From positions 1-37,867 of IMG/VR virus record IMGVR_UViG_3300037780_000019: a stretch of 37,867 bases of DNA. One strand, written 5' to 3'. Under the pieces are notes generated by a model, which saw only the letters and a program-made list of their open reading frames with translations, made no database searches and was not told where the DNA came from. This DNA comes from a virus (Duplodnaviria > Caudoviricetes). Positions 23,113 to 34,676 of the stretch are shown here, piece by piece. A program made the translations under genes and the position numbers. Numbering within the stretch: the stretch's first letter is position 1; each line of letters begins with the position of its first letter.

Positions 23113-23193
23113 ATGAACCATTATGGTGTTTTCTGTCAATGGGAAAATGAACCGTATTGGTTCTATCCGAAATCACACCATTTCGGAGATACT
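23113..23193. promoter_or_regulatory. Operator/promoter region between cro and cI
   Basis: 17-bp quasi-palindromic operators ATGAACCATTATGGTGT (23113-23129) and ATGAACCGTATTGGTTC (23147-23163); minus-strand TTGACA at 23134-23139; possible -10 GATACT 7 nt before the cI ATG. Confidence 0.75.
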
Positions 23194-23200
23194 GCCGCCC

Positions 23201-23887
23201 ATGGCAAAAACACCAAATCGGCTCAGAGAATTACGTGAGGCCCGCGGATACACGCAGGCTGATCTAGGCGAGTTATGCAACACCAGCAGTCAACAGATCG
23301 GACGACTGGAAAAGGGTGAGCGCCGCCTGACGGATGACTGGATGGTCCGCATCGGCAAGGCGCTGAACGTTCCACCCTACTCATTGATGGACGGAGCACC
23401 CACGCACCAGCCAAGCGGCGCGGTTCCCGTGATAGGAGAGGTTGCAGCAGGACTTTTTCGCGAATCCATTGAATGGCCCGAAGAACGGCGCTTTGATGTC
23501 ACAATGCCAACAGATGAGAGATATATGGGATTGAAGACATATGGAGCGCGGGTATCCGGCCCGTCGATGAACGAAATTTACCCTGACGGGTCGATTGTGC
23601 ATTTCGTTTATCTATATGATCTGGACCGGAACCCTATGCACGGCGAGCGGGTCATTGTCCGCCGACGTAATCATCATGACGGATGGGAATTCACCATCAA
23701 GGAGTTGCGGATCGATGACGAGGGCGGTTGCTGGCTGTGGCCCCGGTCTCACGACCCGAAATACCAGGAGCCGTGGAAGCTGGAGTTTTCGGAGGACGAC
23801 GACGCAGCCGGCGTCCCGGATCTCCAGATCGTCGCGCTCGTTATCGGCAGCTACCGGCCGGAAGTCACATCGGCGGCAGTCCGGTAG
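23201..23887 (+). CDS. cI: CI-like repressor, XRE HTH plus S24 autopeptidase
   Basis: NRLRELREARGYTQADLG HTH, VAAG cleavage site, GPSMN catalytic Ser, TIK catalytic Lys. Confidence 0.92.
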   Translation: MAKTPNRLRELREARGYTQADLGELCNTSSQQIGRLEKGERRLTDDWMVRIGKALNVPPYSLMDGAPTHQPSGAVPVIGEVAAGLFRESIEWPEERRFDVTMPTDERYMGLKTYGARVSGPSMNEIYPDGSIVHFVYLYDLDRNPMHGERVIVRRRNHHDGWEFTIKELRIDDEGGCWLWPRSHDPKYQEPWKLEFSEDDDAAGVPDLQIVALVIGSYRPEVTSAAVR

Positions 23888-29230: not shown

Positions 29231-29461
29231 ATGGAACGCAGGGGTTATCCGAGAGTGCTGGCCGCTGAATACATCGGCATATCGCCGTCGAAGTTCAGTC
29301 AGCTTGTCCGCGAGAAGAAAATCCCCGAGCCTCGGGAGATCGACGGCGGTAAGCTGGTCTGGGATCGGTATGACCTGGATGAATACTTCGACGCGCAGCC
29401 CAGAAGGGGCGACCCGGGCGACGCAAGCGAGTGGGATGATCTGGCAAATGGCCAAGCGTAG
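29231..29461 (+). CDS. xis: Excisionase / AlpA-like HTH protein
   Basis: AAEYIGISPSKFSQLV...IPEP...WDRYDLD; GGAGG RBS; immediately upstream of the integrase. Confidence 0.8.
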   Translation: MERRGYPRVLAAEYIGISPSKFSQLVREKKIPEPREIDGGKLVWDRYDLDEYFDAQPRRGDPGDASEWDDLANGQA

Positions 29462-30464
29462 GAACAAGCCAAAGTACGTCGATATCGTCCGTAAGGGCGG
29501 TACGGAGTACCTGTATTTCCGAAAGGGAAAGGGTGCGCGGGTTCCGTTGCGCGGCCCGCTTGATTCCGTCGAGTTCTGGGCCGACTGGAACGCGGCAGCG
29601 GAAGGCTATGTTCACACCAGAGAGCGGGCAGATCGGCACAGCCTCCGGTGGCTGGTGGATCAGTATTACCGCTGGCCCGCATTCCGCGAACTGAAGGCCA
29701 GCACACAAACCGTCCGCAGGCGCATTCTGGAAGGCTTCTGCAAGGAGTACGGAAACCGTGGATACGCGACCCTGACCAGTCAGGCGGCGCGAGGCATCCG
29801 GAACATGAAGCAGGACACCCCGGCGGCCGGCAACAATCTCATCAAGGCGCTGAAGCAGGTTTTCAGCGAGGCCGTAGAGCACGGCATCATTTCATCGAAC
29901 CCGTTCGACGGCATCCGCAAACTAAAGGAGCGCAAGCAGGGCGCAACCCCGTGGAGCATCGAGGACGTGGAGAAGTACGAGAATCATCACGCCATCGGAA
30001 CACAGGCCCGCCTCGCGCTCGCCCTGTTCCTCTACACCGGACAGCGCAGATCCGACGTTGCCCGCATGGGTCGCCAGCACATCAAGCGCGAGACCCTGAG
30101 CATGACCCAGACCAAGACCGGCAATCAGATTGATATCCCCGTTCTGCCGATGCTGCGCGAAGTCCTCGACGCCACGGAGACGGGAGACCTCACGTTCCTG
30201 ATAACGACGCACGGGAAGTCATTCACGGTAAATGGCCTGGGGAACAAGTTCCGGCAGTGGTGCGACGAGGCGGGGTTGCCGGACAAGAGTTCGCACGGCC
30301 TCCGTAAGGCGATGGCCATCCGTCTCGCCGAGAAGGGATGCACGCCGCACCAGATCGGAGCCATCACCGGCCACGAGTCTCTGGCGGAGATCGAGCGCTA
30401 CACGAGAGGCGCGAACCGCAAGAAACTGGCCGAGAATGTCACGAGGCTGTTCAGCGATGATTGA
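29448..30464 (+). CDS. int: Tyrosine integrase, 338 aa
   Basis: YTGQRRSD (R), QTKT (K), HGLRK (H-x-x-R), TGH and ERY (Y) catalytic residues. Confidence 0.93.
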   Translation: MAKRRNKPKYVDIVRKGGTEYLYFRKGKGARVPLRGPLDSVEFWADWNAAAEGYVHTRERADRHSLRWLVDQYYRWPAFRELKASTQTVRRRILEGFCKEYGNRGYATLTSQAARGIRNMKQDTPAAGNNLIKALKQVFSEAVEHGIISSNPFDGIRKLKERKQGATPWSIEDVEKYENHHAIGTQARLALALFLYTGQRRSDVARMGRQHIKRETLSMTQTKTGNQIDIPVLPMLREVLDATETGDLTFLITTHGKSFTVNGLGNKFRQWCDEAGLPDKSSHGLRKAMAIRLAEKGCTPHQIGAITGHESLAEIERYTRGANRKKLAENVTRLFSDD

Positions 30465-32061: not shown

Positions 32062-32656
32062 CGACCCGCAGAACGTGGACGATGCAATCGCCCGAATGGA
32101 AAAGCGCATCGCAGAGAACCCAAACGCCAAGGGGTTGAATCTTGGGTTGCGCTCACTGAACAAGCGGAAGACTTTCGACCTGAAAGCGGCACCTGAGCAA
32201 TACAGTAGAACGCGGAGTCATGTTTTAGGAATTGTCCTGCCGATGATGGCCCCGAATGATTTTTCTTTCTTTGCCGGATGGACGCGGGAATTGGCCAGAT
32301 TCATCAGACAATCTTCATTCCCGGTTGCGTGCGAGTACCCGGGAGAAATTGAGGATTGGTGCAAAAGGATTGAATGCAGCGACGGGGACGGCATCACAGG
32401 CAACTGCGCATTCGTCCGGAAGAAGATACAGGAAATCGACTACGAGGACGGGTGGCCAGTTGATAGGTACGGGAATGCCCTGAATGCAGTTTGTCTCGGC
32501 ATGCTGATGTATCAGGACACCCGCTGGCCTGATGAGGCAGCTGAAAGTGTCTTTCGTCTTATCACGGGCATGACCGCTTACAACGACACCACATCTAAAA
32601 TGATGAGGGAGTGGAAACTCGACCTCGCACTTAAATGCGCGGAAGCAGCAGAATGA
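32054..32656 (+). CDS. Hypothetical protein, 200 aa, lower GC
   Basis: AGGA RBS within the junction repeat; AT-richer codon usage. Confidence 0.65.
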   Translation: MTDDPQNVDDAIARMEKRIAENPNAKGLNLGLRSLNKRKTFDLKAAPEQYSRTRSHVLGIVLPMMAPNDFSFFAGWTRELARFIRQSSFPVACEYPGEIEDWCKRIECSDGDGITGNCAFVRKKIQEIDYEDGWPVDRYGNALNAVCLGMLMYQDTRWPDEAAESVFRLITGMTAYNDTTSKMMREWKLDLALKCAEAAE

Positions 32657-32970
32657 CCGAGATCAAAGCGTGCCCTTTCTGTGGTGCGAGCGGTGAGGAT
32701 GTGTCTGTCTACGGCGACATGGTGACCCCCTACTATATCGAGTGCAACAAGTGCGATGCATGGGGGCCGAACGCTGACACTGAAGCCGAAGCCATCCAGA
32801 AATGGAACGCCGCCGCCGACCGTATCGAGGAACTGAAGGCGGAGAACGAGAGCTTGCGGGCGGCCCTGCCAACACTGGCCCGTTTCACCCGCACCATTTC
32901 AGCGCCAGTGCCATCCGCCAAGGACGAACAGTGCAACATCCAGATCATCGAGGAACAGCGCCATGACTGA
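32653..32970 (+). CDS. Lar-like zinc-ribbon protein fused to a coiled coil
   Basis: IKACPFCG...IECNKCDAWGP...EAIQKWN followed by AAADRIEELKAEN. Confidence 0.75.
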   Translation: MTEIKACPFCGASGEDVSVYGDMVTPYYIECNKCDAWGPNADTEAEAIQKWNAAADRIEELKAENESLRAALPTLARFTRTISAPVPSAKDEQCNIQIIEEQRHD

Positions 32971-33009: not shown

Positions 33010-33396
33010 GGAGAACCAGTGATGAACACCTACGGACAGTACCAATATCCCGGTCGCCCTGAATGGTATCCCGATCCTGCCAGCGCTCAGAGGAACATCG
33101 GAATGTTCAGGACGCCGGATCATGCGGTTGCCGAGTGCATCGAAAAGCACGGCGTCGCCATCGAACGGTCAGTCAGTTGGAAGACCACGGAAGGATGGGT
33201 ATCGCGTGTCACGGTCGGCCCGTACCCGGATTGGAAGACGGCGAACGTCGAAGCCTATCAGTCGGCATTCGCGATGGGCATGCCCTTCCCGAAGATCCGC
33301 AAGCACTGGTGGGAGTTCTGGAAGACGGAGTATAGCGCGGAGGAGGAAGAAGCCATCCGCGAGGCGTGGAATCTGTTCACGGAGAACCAGTGATGA
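33010..33396 (+). repeat. 16-bp direct repeat of the RBS/stop/start junction bracketing gene 33019-33393
   Basis: GGAGAACCAGTGATGA at 33010-33025 and 33381-33396. Confidence 0.85.
33019..33393 (+). CDS. Hypothetical protein
   Basis: GGAG RBS; Trp/Tyr-rich 124-aa ORF. Confidence 0.65.
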   Translation: MMNTYGQYQYPGRPEWYPDPASAQRNIGMFRTPDHAVAECIEKHGVAIERSVSWKTTEGWVSRVTVGPYPDWKTANVEAYQSAFAMGMPFPKIRKHWWEFWKTEYSAEEEEAIREAWNLFTENQ

Positions 33397-33608
33397 CGTG
33401 GCGGGACATCGAGACAGCGCCGGAGGAAGGCAGGGAAATCGAATGCTGGAACCCCGTGACCGGCGTCTACAGGACAAAGCGAGGGGGCGATGAGTACCCT
33501 TTCCGCAACTGGATATACGAGGGCAGCATCCACTATCCAAGGCCGCGAAAATGGCGGTACGTAGGGCAGGAAAAGTTGCGCAAATCGGCGGATTCTGCTA
33601 TAAAGTGA
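33393..33608 (+). CDS. Small phage protein (WRDIETAP, DUF551-like)
   Basis: TGATG coupling; MTWRDIETAPEEGREI...PRKWRY. Confidence 0.7.
   Translation: MTWRDIETAPEEGREIECWNPVTGVYRTKRGGDEYPFRNWIYEGSIHYPRPRKWRYVGQEKLRKSADSAIK
33576..33604 (+). promoter_or_regulatory. Sigma70 promoter driving the candidate ncRNA
   Basis: TTGCGC (33576-33581), 17 bp, TATAAA (33599-33604), with an extended -10 TG at 33596-33597. Confidence 0.7.
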
Positions 33609-33609
33609 G

Positions 33610-34150
33610 GGCAAGTCCAATGGTCTTGCCACGAGATCGCGAGCGGCGTGGAAAGCAGACACGCACGAAAAAGCAGCACCGGATAGTGGTCGGGTCGGCG
33701 TCAGGGAAACCAAGTCGGCGGAGGACGCTCCTCGGAAGGCCGGTTAGCGGGAGTAGCGCCCCGCCTCGCGACACTTAGGAGACAGGCCATGTGCCTTGAG
33801 ATGAAACACGGAGACGCGGGAAGCGCGGGTTAGGTGACGTCAACCGGCCCGTTTTCAGGGGTGCGAATGGCGTTAAACCCATGCCCCGCAACGGTTTAAG
33901 CCTGACGTCGGAAGTGAGGAAGTGCAGCCCGCCATATCGGCAATCTTGGCTATCACGCGGAAGCCTGAGGGGCCTTGTCACCAAGCAAGGACTGCCTGAA
34001 TTTTCTAGCATGCAGGCCGGTGGCGATCAAGGAATCGGGTTAGGAATACATGGGTGTGGCAAGAAATGCGCACACCAGCCGCCGGGTAAGGCGCGTTGCC
34101 CCCGGCGGGAAAATCAGGGAGCCGTCATCTTCGGATGACGGCTTCTTTTG
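33610..34150 (+). ncRNA. Candidate large structured non-coding RNA (~540 nt) with a tRNA-like 5' domain
   Basis: Own promoter and terminator, no convincing CDS, and about ten complementary segment pairs including nested long-range helices (see findings). Confidence 0.6.
34120..34150 (+). terminator. Intrinsic terminator ending the ncRNA/rightward transcription
   Basis: AGCCGTCATC-TTCG-GATGACGGCT followed by TCTTTTG; sits between convergent transcription units. Confidence 0.85.
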
Positions 34151-34160
34151 TGGTTGACAG

Positions 34161-34676
34161 TCAGCGCCGGAGGTCCTTTTCCTTCGAGCCGCGCGAGGAC
34201 CCGAATTCAAACTGGAACGCATCCCCGATCATCTTGAGGATCGCCCCGATGGCCATGTTGAAGATAGCCAGGATTTCGCCGGGCAGATCGAGCCGCGACT
34301 GATAGATCGCCCATACGATTGCGCAGAGGCACCCGAAGGCAAGCGTGAGCATGATGTCGGCGCGGTAGTTGTGATACCCGGCTTGCCGCATCTTCACGTC
34401 GCGGTCGCGGGCGTTTTGCCGGTCAGCCAGATAGGCTTTCTCCAACTCTGCGTCGAGCGATGCCATTCTGTTCTGGAACCGCAGCACCGCCTCCGGATCG
34501 GCTTTCACCGCCTCCACGGCCTTCTGGGGATCGGCTTCGCCCGTCACAGCCTTGGCAACATCGACGACCTTCTCGGCCACGTCGGCCGCATTGTCTCCGG
34601 CGAAATGACGGACGATGCCCGGCGCGAATTCCGAGACCAACGTCATGGCGAGCGGGATCAGCGGGAAAGCTACCAT
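34161..34676 (-). CDS. Putative holin
   Basis: Two C-terminal transmembrane helices; DRQNARDR and FEFGSSRGSKEKD motifs; follows the endolysin. Confidence 0.7.
   Translation of the reverse strand: MVAFPLIPLAMTLVSEFAPGIVRHFAGDNAADVAEKVVDVAKAVTGEADPQKAVEAVKADPEAVLRFQNRMASLDAELEKAYLADRQNARDRDVKMRQAGYHNYRADIMLTLAFGCLCAIVWAIYQSRLDLPGEILAIFNMAIGAILKMIGDAFQFEFGSSRGSKEKDLRR

Follow-up and report, generated by a model that had tools for sequence, protein, structure and literature searches.

Sequence comparisons across viral genomes indicate that the element at positions 33637-33771 on the plus strand of the IMG/VR virus record IMGVR_UViG_3300037780_000019 belongs to an RNA family that is widespread in phages, occurring in hundreds of viral contigs and folding into a cloverleaf supported by covariation. 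The window, that is, the whole stretch of DNA analysed here, comprises 37,867 bases and is a complete-looking record with direct terminal repeats. The original prediction, made from this stretch alone, described the element as a mimic of the tRNA elbow in which an insert of ~80 nt replaces the anticodon arm. The helices it named are all found where it placed them. Their order also holds beyond the window: the closing stem, the 2-nt linker, a first ('D-like') hairpin, a long insert at the position of the anticodon arm and a second ('T-like') hairpin are supported by covariation in sets of 81 and 93 sequences. Phage genomes are annotated almost wholly by their proteins. Here, a strongly conserved RNA gene or module recurs in hundreds of viral contigs, and the family is apparently uncatalogued.

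Covariation and spread of the family

In the window copy, the closing stem P1 is formed by TCGCGAG (33637-33643) and CTCGCGA (33765-33771). It is followed by the linker CG (33644-33645) and by hairpin 1, GCGUG-GAAAGCAGA-CACGC (33646-33664), which lies within a block identical in all seven aligned copies. The block 33637-33664, consisting of the closing stem strand, the CG linker and the 5-bp hairpin 1, is identical to the family consensus. The variable arm (33665-33746), delimited from sequence and fold, contains an A-rich joiner (33665-33677), an arm-closing stem and inner hairpins, including GAGGA-CGC-UCCUC (33721-33733). The arm-closing stem is ACCGG (33678-33682) paired with CCGGT (33740-33744); it is replaced by GCGGG/CCCGC in loci L037, L038 and L040, which represents covariation. 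Hairpin 2, GCGGG-AGUAGCGC-CCCGC (33747-33764; loop AGTAGCGC in DNA), abuts the 3' strand of P1 with zero bases in between. Thus, 33747-33771 is a 5-bp hairpin with an AGUAGCGM loop directly adjoining the closing stem, and the same GCGGG/CCCGC stem of hairpin 2 is found in L085, L121 and Synechococcus phage Ssp-JY40. The minimum free energy (MFE) fold returns the closing stem and both hairpins of the window copy. Covariance model R1, built from 81 sequences, matches the window at 33632-33778 (+) over its full length (81.7 bits, E 1.7e-18; the window copy is part of the training set), and this is the only match in the window when both strands are searched.

Taken alone, the evidence from this single sequence is at chance level. 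The 135-nt fold has a z-score of -0.44 on the plus strand, with 58 of 200 shuffled sequences folding equally well or better, and of +0.31 on the minus strand. A scripted pattern of a 7-bp stem, 2 nt, a D-like hairpin and an abutting 5-bp T-like hairpin finds one site in the window; of 100 genomes shuffled by dinucleotide, 34 have one or more such sites (mean 0.45 per genome). tRNA finders miss the element, as had been expected. ARAGORN, which also searches for transfer-messenger RNA (tmRNA), reports no genes in the window, and the Rfam tRNA model has no match there at E up to 10. Rfam 15 gives no match over the element at gathering scores and none at E up to 10 over 33400-34300; the one match at E up to 10 (E = 4.8) is irrelevant and lies away from the element. 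At E-values up to 0.5, the element is likewise unmatched in 15 further loci, the only detections in these being tRNAs nearby, Proteo-phage-1 RNA and a SorX hit below the threshold. The element is judged to be real because it is conserved, and its helices covary, in other phages.

An exact 24-mer from hairpin 1 matches six other, unrelated viral contigs. By blastn, the similarity is confined to ~124 nt (33643-33765), with 81-84% identity in three contigs and unrelated flanks. The seven-way alignment contains an invariant block of 26 nt on the 5' side and a conserved one on the 3' side, with compensatory changes in the closing stem, hairpin 2 and the stem closing the insert. A pattern combining the hairpin 1 core with GTAGCG is present in 87 viral loci; with the window included, its 94 occurrences comprise 83 distinct cores. 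As an independent handle, the hairpin 2 block by itself is found in at least 122 viral loci, with an estimated ~370 in the collection. Of the first 100 of these loci, 93 contain the element over its full length according to R1. A census by regular expression yields 146 distinct copies. Some contigs contain two hairpin 2 blocks (L159/L160, L175/L176 and L139/L186), separated by ~0.8 kb to 25 kb.

Covariation was assessed in two alignments, A2 and A3. A2 comprises 81 sequences, with the window ungapped, whereas A3 comprises 93 sequences found via the 3' block, for which hairpin 1 lies outside of the search handle. All three core helices covary. In A2, the closing stem (8 bp) is paired in 95% of cases with double changes at all eight pairs, and hairpin 2 in 99.8% with double changes at all five pairs. 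In A3, the closing stem is paired in 96.5%, with covariation at seven of eight pairs, and hairpin 1 in 98.4%, with double changes at all five pairs. The covariation scores of 0.528 (A2) and 0.477 (A3) compare with 0.112 and 0.099 for shuffled alignments, and none of 500 shuffles equals the observed value in either set. When partners are slid by 1-3 columns, the score falls to 0.03-0.11 and pairing to 30-42% of cells. Mutual information across 136 distinct cores points to the same helices: the ten top column pairs are all pairs of the closing stem or the hairpin stems, and a ninth pair of the closing stem is also supported. G-U and U-G pairs outnumber A-C and C-A mismatches in both alignments (28 versus 11 in A2, 23 versus 9 in A3).

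Across the family, the span from P1 to P1 is 83-233 nt, with a median of 150 nt, and the variable arm, 27-178 nt long, is unalignable. The strands of the junction are nearly empty (2, 1-2, 1 and 0 nt). The linker is CG in 85 of the 93 A3 sequences. In the same set, the loop of hairpin 1 is GAAAGCAGA in 58 of 93 sequences and 9 nt long in 71; variants recovered via the 3' handle include GAGAGCAGA and GAAAGCGGA, among others. Some members have an extra hairpin of up to 116 nt inserted inside this loop. The loop of hairpin 2 is 8 nt long in 92 of 93 sequences and reads AGUAGCG followed by C, A or U in 92 of 93, GUAGCG itself being fixed by the search pattern.

R1 also matches named phages, namely, Pseudomonas phage Persinger, PotUPM1, Orimi01, Ochrobactrum phage POI1126 and Synechococcus phage Ssp-JY40, as well as a 59-kb 'plasmid' of Brucella pseudintermedia, which is near-identical to POI1126. 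The element is unannotated in the records of the named carriers, where the spot is either blank or filled by a 'hypothetical protein'. In Orimi01, hypothetical protein XAI70718.1 overlaps the element (L132, 2494-2967) and may represent a mis-called open reading frame (ORF). There is no significant R1 match in Streptomyces phage R4. Among bacteria, R1 matches one of 101 genomes from the class of a Thalassobaculum metagenome-assembled genome (MAG) and, weakly, one of 151 from its phylum, in a search of limited sensitivity that scored only 22-33 first-look candidates per genome. A narrow pattern scan finds the element in none of 401 bacterial genomes, with a gap setting of 40-70 nt that would miss most members, and there is no match in E. 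coli genomes. The hit among the 101 genomes of the class, a full-length copy (G080; L261 1501-1666 (-) / L262; 66 bits), is plainly chromosomal. It is located at the 3' end of a glycogen/trehalose operon (TreS-like, GlgB, GlgX and amylase-family genes), facing rpiA and a ROK-family gene. Ten ORFs were scanned in the adjacent 20 kb: five have Pfam annotations, all metabolic, and five have no Pfam match. A PHROGs search of the six ORFs nearest to this element gave no match.

Neighbourhood of the element and its possible functions

Where tRNA genes are found near the element, they are all on the same strand as the element (18 of 18). Five element-tRNA junctions, measured from R1 model coordinates and ARAGORN calls, have gaps of 3-5 nt. 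The L053 copy fits between two tRNA genes, its closing stem being separated by 3 nt from tRNA-Ile upstream and by 5 nt from tRNA-Met downstream. In L105, tRNA-Met ends 3 nt ahead of the closing stem, and in L085 and POI1126 the element precedes tRNA-Arg by 3 nt and tRNA-Gln by 4 nt, respectively. The distance is larger, 12 nt before tRNA-Tyr, in L222. None of the tRNAs called by ARAGORN in the scanned loci falls on the element itself. In L237 (288-460, minus strand), a tRNA is nested in the variable arm; it scores 41 bits with Rfam, against a gathering score of 29, and is called by ARAGORN only at a lowered threshold. A single lineage of contigs (L047, 1196-1276; L155, 25-105; and, by blastn, L048, L057, L069 and L079) carries a Proteo-phage-1 RNA (RF03044, 69-72 bits) ~210 nt upstream of the element, which makes up a small island of non-coding RNA genes.

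The protein-coding neighbours are diverse. Among 90 loci, no neighbouring protein family is common, and the largest ORF cluster, spanning five loci, overlaps the element itself. In phage Persinger, the element follows the integrase gene by 18 nt. In PotUPM1 and Orimi01, it heads the early operon, next to the repressor gene, and in Ssp-JY40 it lies between the gene for the large terminase and the next gene. POI1126 is N4-like: its relative, the B. pseudintermedia plasmid, carries a capsid gene annotated as N4-gp56 family. Terminator-like sites within 150 nt are no more frequent downstream (10 of 82) than upstream (10 of 82) of the element. The element thus has no terminator of its own and is not a stand-alone transcription unit.

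We see slightly less than an even chance that this widespread cloverleaf RNA is excised like a tRNA from long transcripts and acts through a surface made of its two invariant loops. The near-empty junction and the abutting hairpin 2 suggest tRNA-like coaxial stacking. The four-way junction would then fold like the L of a tRNA, with one stack made of P1 and hairpin 2 and the other of hairpin 1 and the variable arm, and this fold would bring the two loops together as an 'elbow'. Excision by host nucleases that form tRNA ends is suggested by three features: the element takes tRNA slots, lacks a terminator of its own and is freely placed in operons. RNase P acting on the 5' side and trimming on the 3' side would free the unit from polycistronic or tRNA-array transcripts. 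The loops are identical in phages of gamma- and alphaproteobacteria and of cyanobacteria, and no partner is encoded nearby, suggesting that the partner is universal to the hosts. The conserved loops may bind something shared by Pseudomonas, Ochrobactrum and Synechococcus, that is, a core host machine rather than a phage protein.

Several observations weigh against excision and a loop-built elbow. Only 15 of 205 loci have a tRNA gene in the scanned locus DNA, and 190 do not. The closing stem, measured in 146 copies, is most often 9 bp long (51 copies), followed by 8 bp (23), 7 bp (18) and 10 bp (12), with a maximum of 25 bp; the predicted 7+5 geometry holds in the window copy but is not the most frequent one in the family. 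The two loops, AGUAGCGM (8 nt) and GAAAGCAGA (9 nt), are not the 7-nt T-loop and the G18G19-type D-loop of tRNAs. Their Watson-Crick complementarity, read from the loop sequences, is at most 2 bp, and no pair of columns between them is among the top 30 by mutual information in the 136 distinct cores. The near-invariance of the loops is in part due to ascertainment, since the search patterns themselves prescribed GTGGAAAGCAGACAC, GTAGCG or the 3' block. To our knowledge, the natural tRNA mimics handled by RNase P or the CCA-adding enzyme all keep a GTPsiC-type T-arm. Bacterial RNase P prefers U at position -1, but U is the least common base there (20 of 141). Only 16 of 146 copies have CCA at a distance of up to 5 nt from P1. 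The 3' flank has a weak ACC-like tendency: +1 is A in 61 of 141 copies (background A 23%), and C is present in 56 of 141 at +2 and in 60 of 141 at +3 (background C 28%). The indirect signs of tRNA-like end processing are therefore mixed, the tRNA-slot spacing standing against the rare U at -1 and the weakness of this tendency. The analogy to tRNA gains from the shared orientation and the tight spacing to tRNA genes in L053, L085, L105 and POI1126, whereas strict mimicry of tRNA is not supported, given the variable closing stem, the missing T-loop, the lack of a conserved CCA and the rarity of U at -1.

The alternatives were ranked in the order of a cis-acting mRNA element, a new self-cleaving ribozyme, a defence decoy and a DNA site. 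A cis-acting element in 5', intergenic or 3' untranslated regions, which would set transcript ends, shield against exonucleases or modify the polymerase and would not be released, appears unlikely to us. It would account for the constant co-orientation with neighbouring genes and the absence of a terminator. It would also fit the location in operon 3' tails in the window, after the Persinger integrase gene and after the chromosomal glycogen/trehalose operon of G080, the position next to the repressor gene, where the early operon begins, in PotUPM1 and Orimi01, and the presence of a ribosome-binding site and ATG ~20-50 nt beyond the element in the window, L037 and L039. However, the ORF following the element in the window has merely 14 codons, and the lack of a gene family common to the 90 loci, upstream or downstream, speaks against a gene-specific regulator. 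Spacing of 3-5 nt inside tRNA arrays would be odd for an mRNA element. Furthermore, the early region of phage HK022 (24000-32000), which we take to contain the put antiterminator sites, is dissimilar, the best R1 score being 10 bits (E 0.13). Distinctly unlikely, in our estimate, is a new class of self-cleaving ribozyme, with the loops and junction as the active site and a cut that processes phage transcripts or tRNA precursors. The element has traits of context in common with small self-cleaving ribozymes, being phage-borne, without gene association, with a variable peripheral stem and near-invariant short blocks, and sometimes in two copies per contig, and HDV-like theta ribozymes adjoining phage tRNAs offer a precedent (PMC10879173). 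Nevertheless, the Rfam models of self-cleaving ribozymes (hammerhead, HDV-like/theta, twister, twister-sister, pistol and hatchet) do not match the element at E up to 10 in the window or up to 0.5 in 15 further loci, and flank base counts reveal no conserved cleavage-site dinucleotide at either end. The cores of known small ribozymes also differ from the element, in which the junction strands are near-empty and the conserved bases lie in terminal loops.

Besides cleavage by RNase P/Z that would release a downstream RNA, the original prediction had raised a decoy function, and we assign a low probability to the element acting as a decoy or sponge towards a nuclease or modifying enzyme with which a host defence or toxin attacks tRNAs. 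The tRNA-like topology, the location with phage tRNA genes and the rarity in the sampled bacterial genomes (1/101 and 1/151) are in line with such a role, and phage tRNAs are themselves thought to supplement cleaved host tRNAs or act as decoys (PMC13096335). Yet the element has no anticodon loop or conserved arm with which to copy the usual cleavage targets, the arm at that position being its most variable part. Moreover, defence systems are patchy, whereas the loops are the same across very different hosts, as would fit a universal partner. It is very improbable that the element acts as a site in the DNA, for instance an attachment site or another target of recombination, even though two related provirus records end in the equivalent gap and the Persinger element follows the integrase gene. 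The helices stay paired while their sequence changes freely, which DNA recognised by a protein would not do; on the strand of the element, G-U pairs are more numerous than A-C mismatches; and this strand is always that of the neighbouring tRNAs. In addition, the element is present inside a tRNA array of an N4-like phage (POI1126 and its B. pseudintermedia plasmid relative), and the integrase gene of the window is 3.2 kb distant. Finally, the fold z-score and the frequency of the pattern in shuffled genomes would agree with chance inverted repeats devoid of function. The probability of this is negligible in view of hundreds of homologues with compensatory changes, and the covariation in A2 and A3 refutes it.

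If the element is indeed excised like a tRNA, it would provide a portable processing signal for phage operons. An extension of the excision reading, which we consider rather doubtful, is that the element is a new class of functional RNA, a natural 'tRNA scaffold': a cloverleaf that tRNA-end nucleases could excise from any transcript, with the fourth arm carrying a variable RNA cargo up to the size of a whole tRNA. Its elbow, rebuilt from the two invariant loops (AGUA... and GAA..., as the two halves of a loop-E/sarcin-ricin-type motif), would dock on host machinery that is universally conserved, for example the ribosome or RNase P. The cultured carriers among phages of Pseudomonas, Ochrobactrum and Synechococcus make the family directly testable.

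Genomic setting of the window copy

The window phage looks like a temperate, podovirus-type virus. Genes on the minus strand encode tail tube proteins, the portal, the major head protein, the terminase and a T7-type tail-fibre N-terminus. The plus strand carries the genes for the repressor (23123-23887), exonuclease VIII/RecT and the integrase (29304-30464), and a Lar-like gene (32635-32970). The plus-strand arm terminates with an ORF of 80 aa (33366-33608) without a family match, and the minus-strand arm ends, after the M15 endolysin, with a phrog_1544 gene (34161-34676). The 552-nt gap between these convergent arms (33609-34160) contains no credible ORF. The element is placed at the start of the gap, 29 nt past the stop codon of the 80-aa ORF, on the same strand as the upstream arm.

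The only terminator-like hairpin called between the arms is located at 34116-34147 and can be read in both directions, with a 14-pair stem on the plus strand, a 10-pair stem on the minus strand and T-rich tails (inverted repeat I8). It contains a perfect 10-bp hairpin with T-rich tails on either strand and is probably the shared terminator of both arms. With this as the sole terminator, the plus-strand (early/lysogeny) arm would have a 3' untranslated tail of ~540 nt, of which the element would form the beginning. An AGGAGA ribosome-binding site and an ATG at 33790 are found just past the element, in a frame of only 14 codons (33775-33834); in L037 and L039, ORFs of 104 aa begin at the spot equivalent to this ATG.

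The rest of the gap may hold further structured RNA, as predicted by folding. Segments 33772-33900 (+) and 33980-34115 (-) fold beyond shuffled sequences, with z-scores of -2.69 and -3.52, respectively. For these two segments there is no homologue in the fetched loci and no Rfam match. Relatives of the window phage were sought in viral, genome and metagenome collections with the protein encoded at 34161-34676 and with two upstream small proteins; those found are at most 65% identical, and none has the DNA of the gap in common. Two related provirus records (G001, G003; L002, L005) stop 663 nt and 30 nt past the homologue of the 34161-34676 gene. The element may therefore share its gap with the attachment site of this phage group. 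Neither the surroundings of the integrase gene nor the gap yielded a tRNA fragment, and a search for attP against the Thalassobaculum MAG gave no host match. The identification of the element itself as attP was rejected.

Comparison with known RNAs

Searches of the literature by motif string and keyword did not return a description of the element. A catalogue derived from IMG/VR lists 10,006 candidate structured RNAs of viruses and phages and includes 8,495 unnamed IMG/VR candidates, tRNA-like ones among them; the motif strings are absent from its six searchable supplementary files, and an earlier listing is possible in three more that were not searchable (PMC10690425).

Several known RNAs resemble the element in part. 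Like the tRNA-like domain of tmRNA and the Y RNA YrlA, it has a closing stem that resembles an acceptor stem and, where the anticodon arm would be expected, a long insert. However, both of the former keep a tRNA-type T-arm, unlike the element, which in addition has no Rfam match and is not reported by the tmRNA search of ARAGORN in the window. GOLLD and ROOL are several hundred nt long and have many stems, which also sets them apart, as does the lack of an Rfam match for the element. Nevertheless, the context is similar. GOLLD and ROOL are described as associated with tRNAs and prophages (PMC5737381), and the element occurs in the same mix of contexts, with one chromosomal copy and one member in which a tRNA is nested.

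In its architecture, the element parallels tRNA (RF00005). The two have in common the four-arm cloverleaf order, the 2-nt joiner past the closing stem and a final 5-bp hairpin that stacks on the 3' strand of the closing stem without a spacer, together with the spacing in tRNA arrays and the shared strand. The element is, nonetheless, not a tRNA. Its closing stem is mostly 8-10 bp, and the length of 7 bp is not kept across homologues. As predicted, the element has no T-loop, the loop of hairpin 2 being AGUAGCGM, no anticodon stem-loop, the unconserved arm of 27-178 nt taking its place, and no conserved CCA.

Finally, the element resembles the species 1 and 2 RNAs of phage T4 (rnaC and rnaD), which are small, stable RNAs encoded where the tRNA cluster of T4 ends and have been of unknown function for decades. 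Both are non-tRNA structured RNAs of ~120-140 nt in line with phage tRNA genes, and species 1 RNA is processed by RNase P. T4 rnaC (L256, 1409-1547, minus strand) contains the octamer GAGUAGCG twice, a string identical to the loop of hairpin 2 in the window. However, the GAGUAGCG strings are not hexaloops in the MFE fold of rnaC, which has a z-score of -4.57. Unlike the element, rnaC keeps a canonical T-arm, and R1 finds no significant match in the T4 tRNA region (best score 6 bits). Should the element prove to be excised like a tRNA, it would represent a second, far more widespread case of such an RNA beside the species 1 and 2 RNAs of T4.

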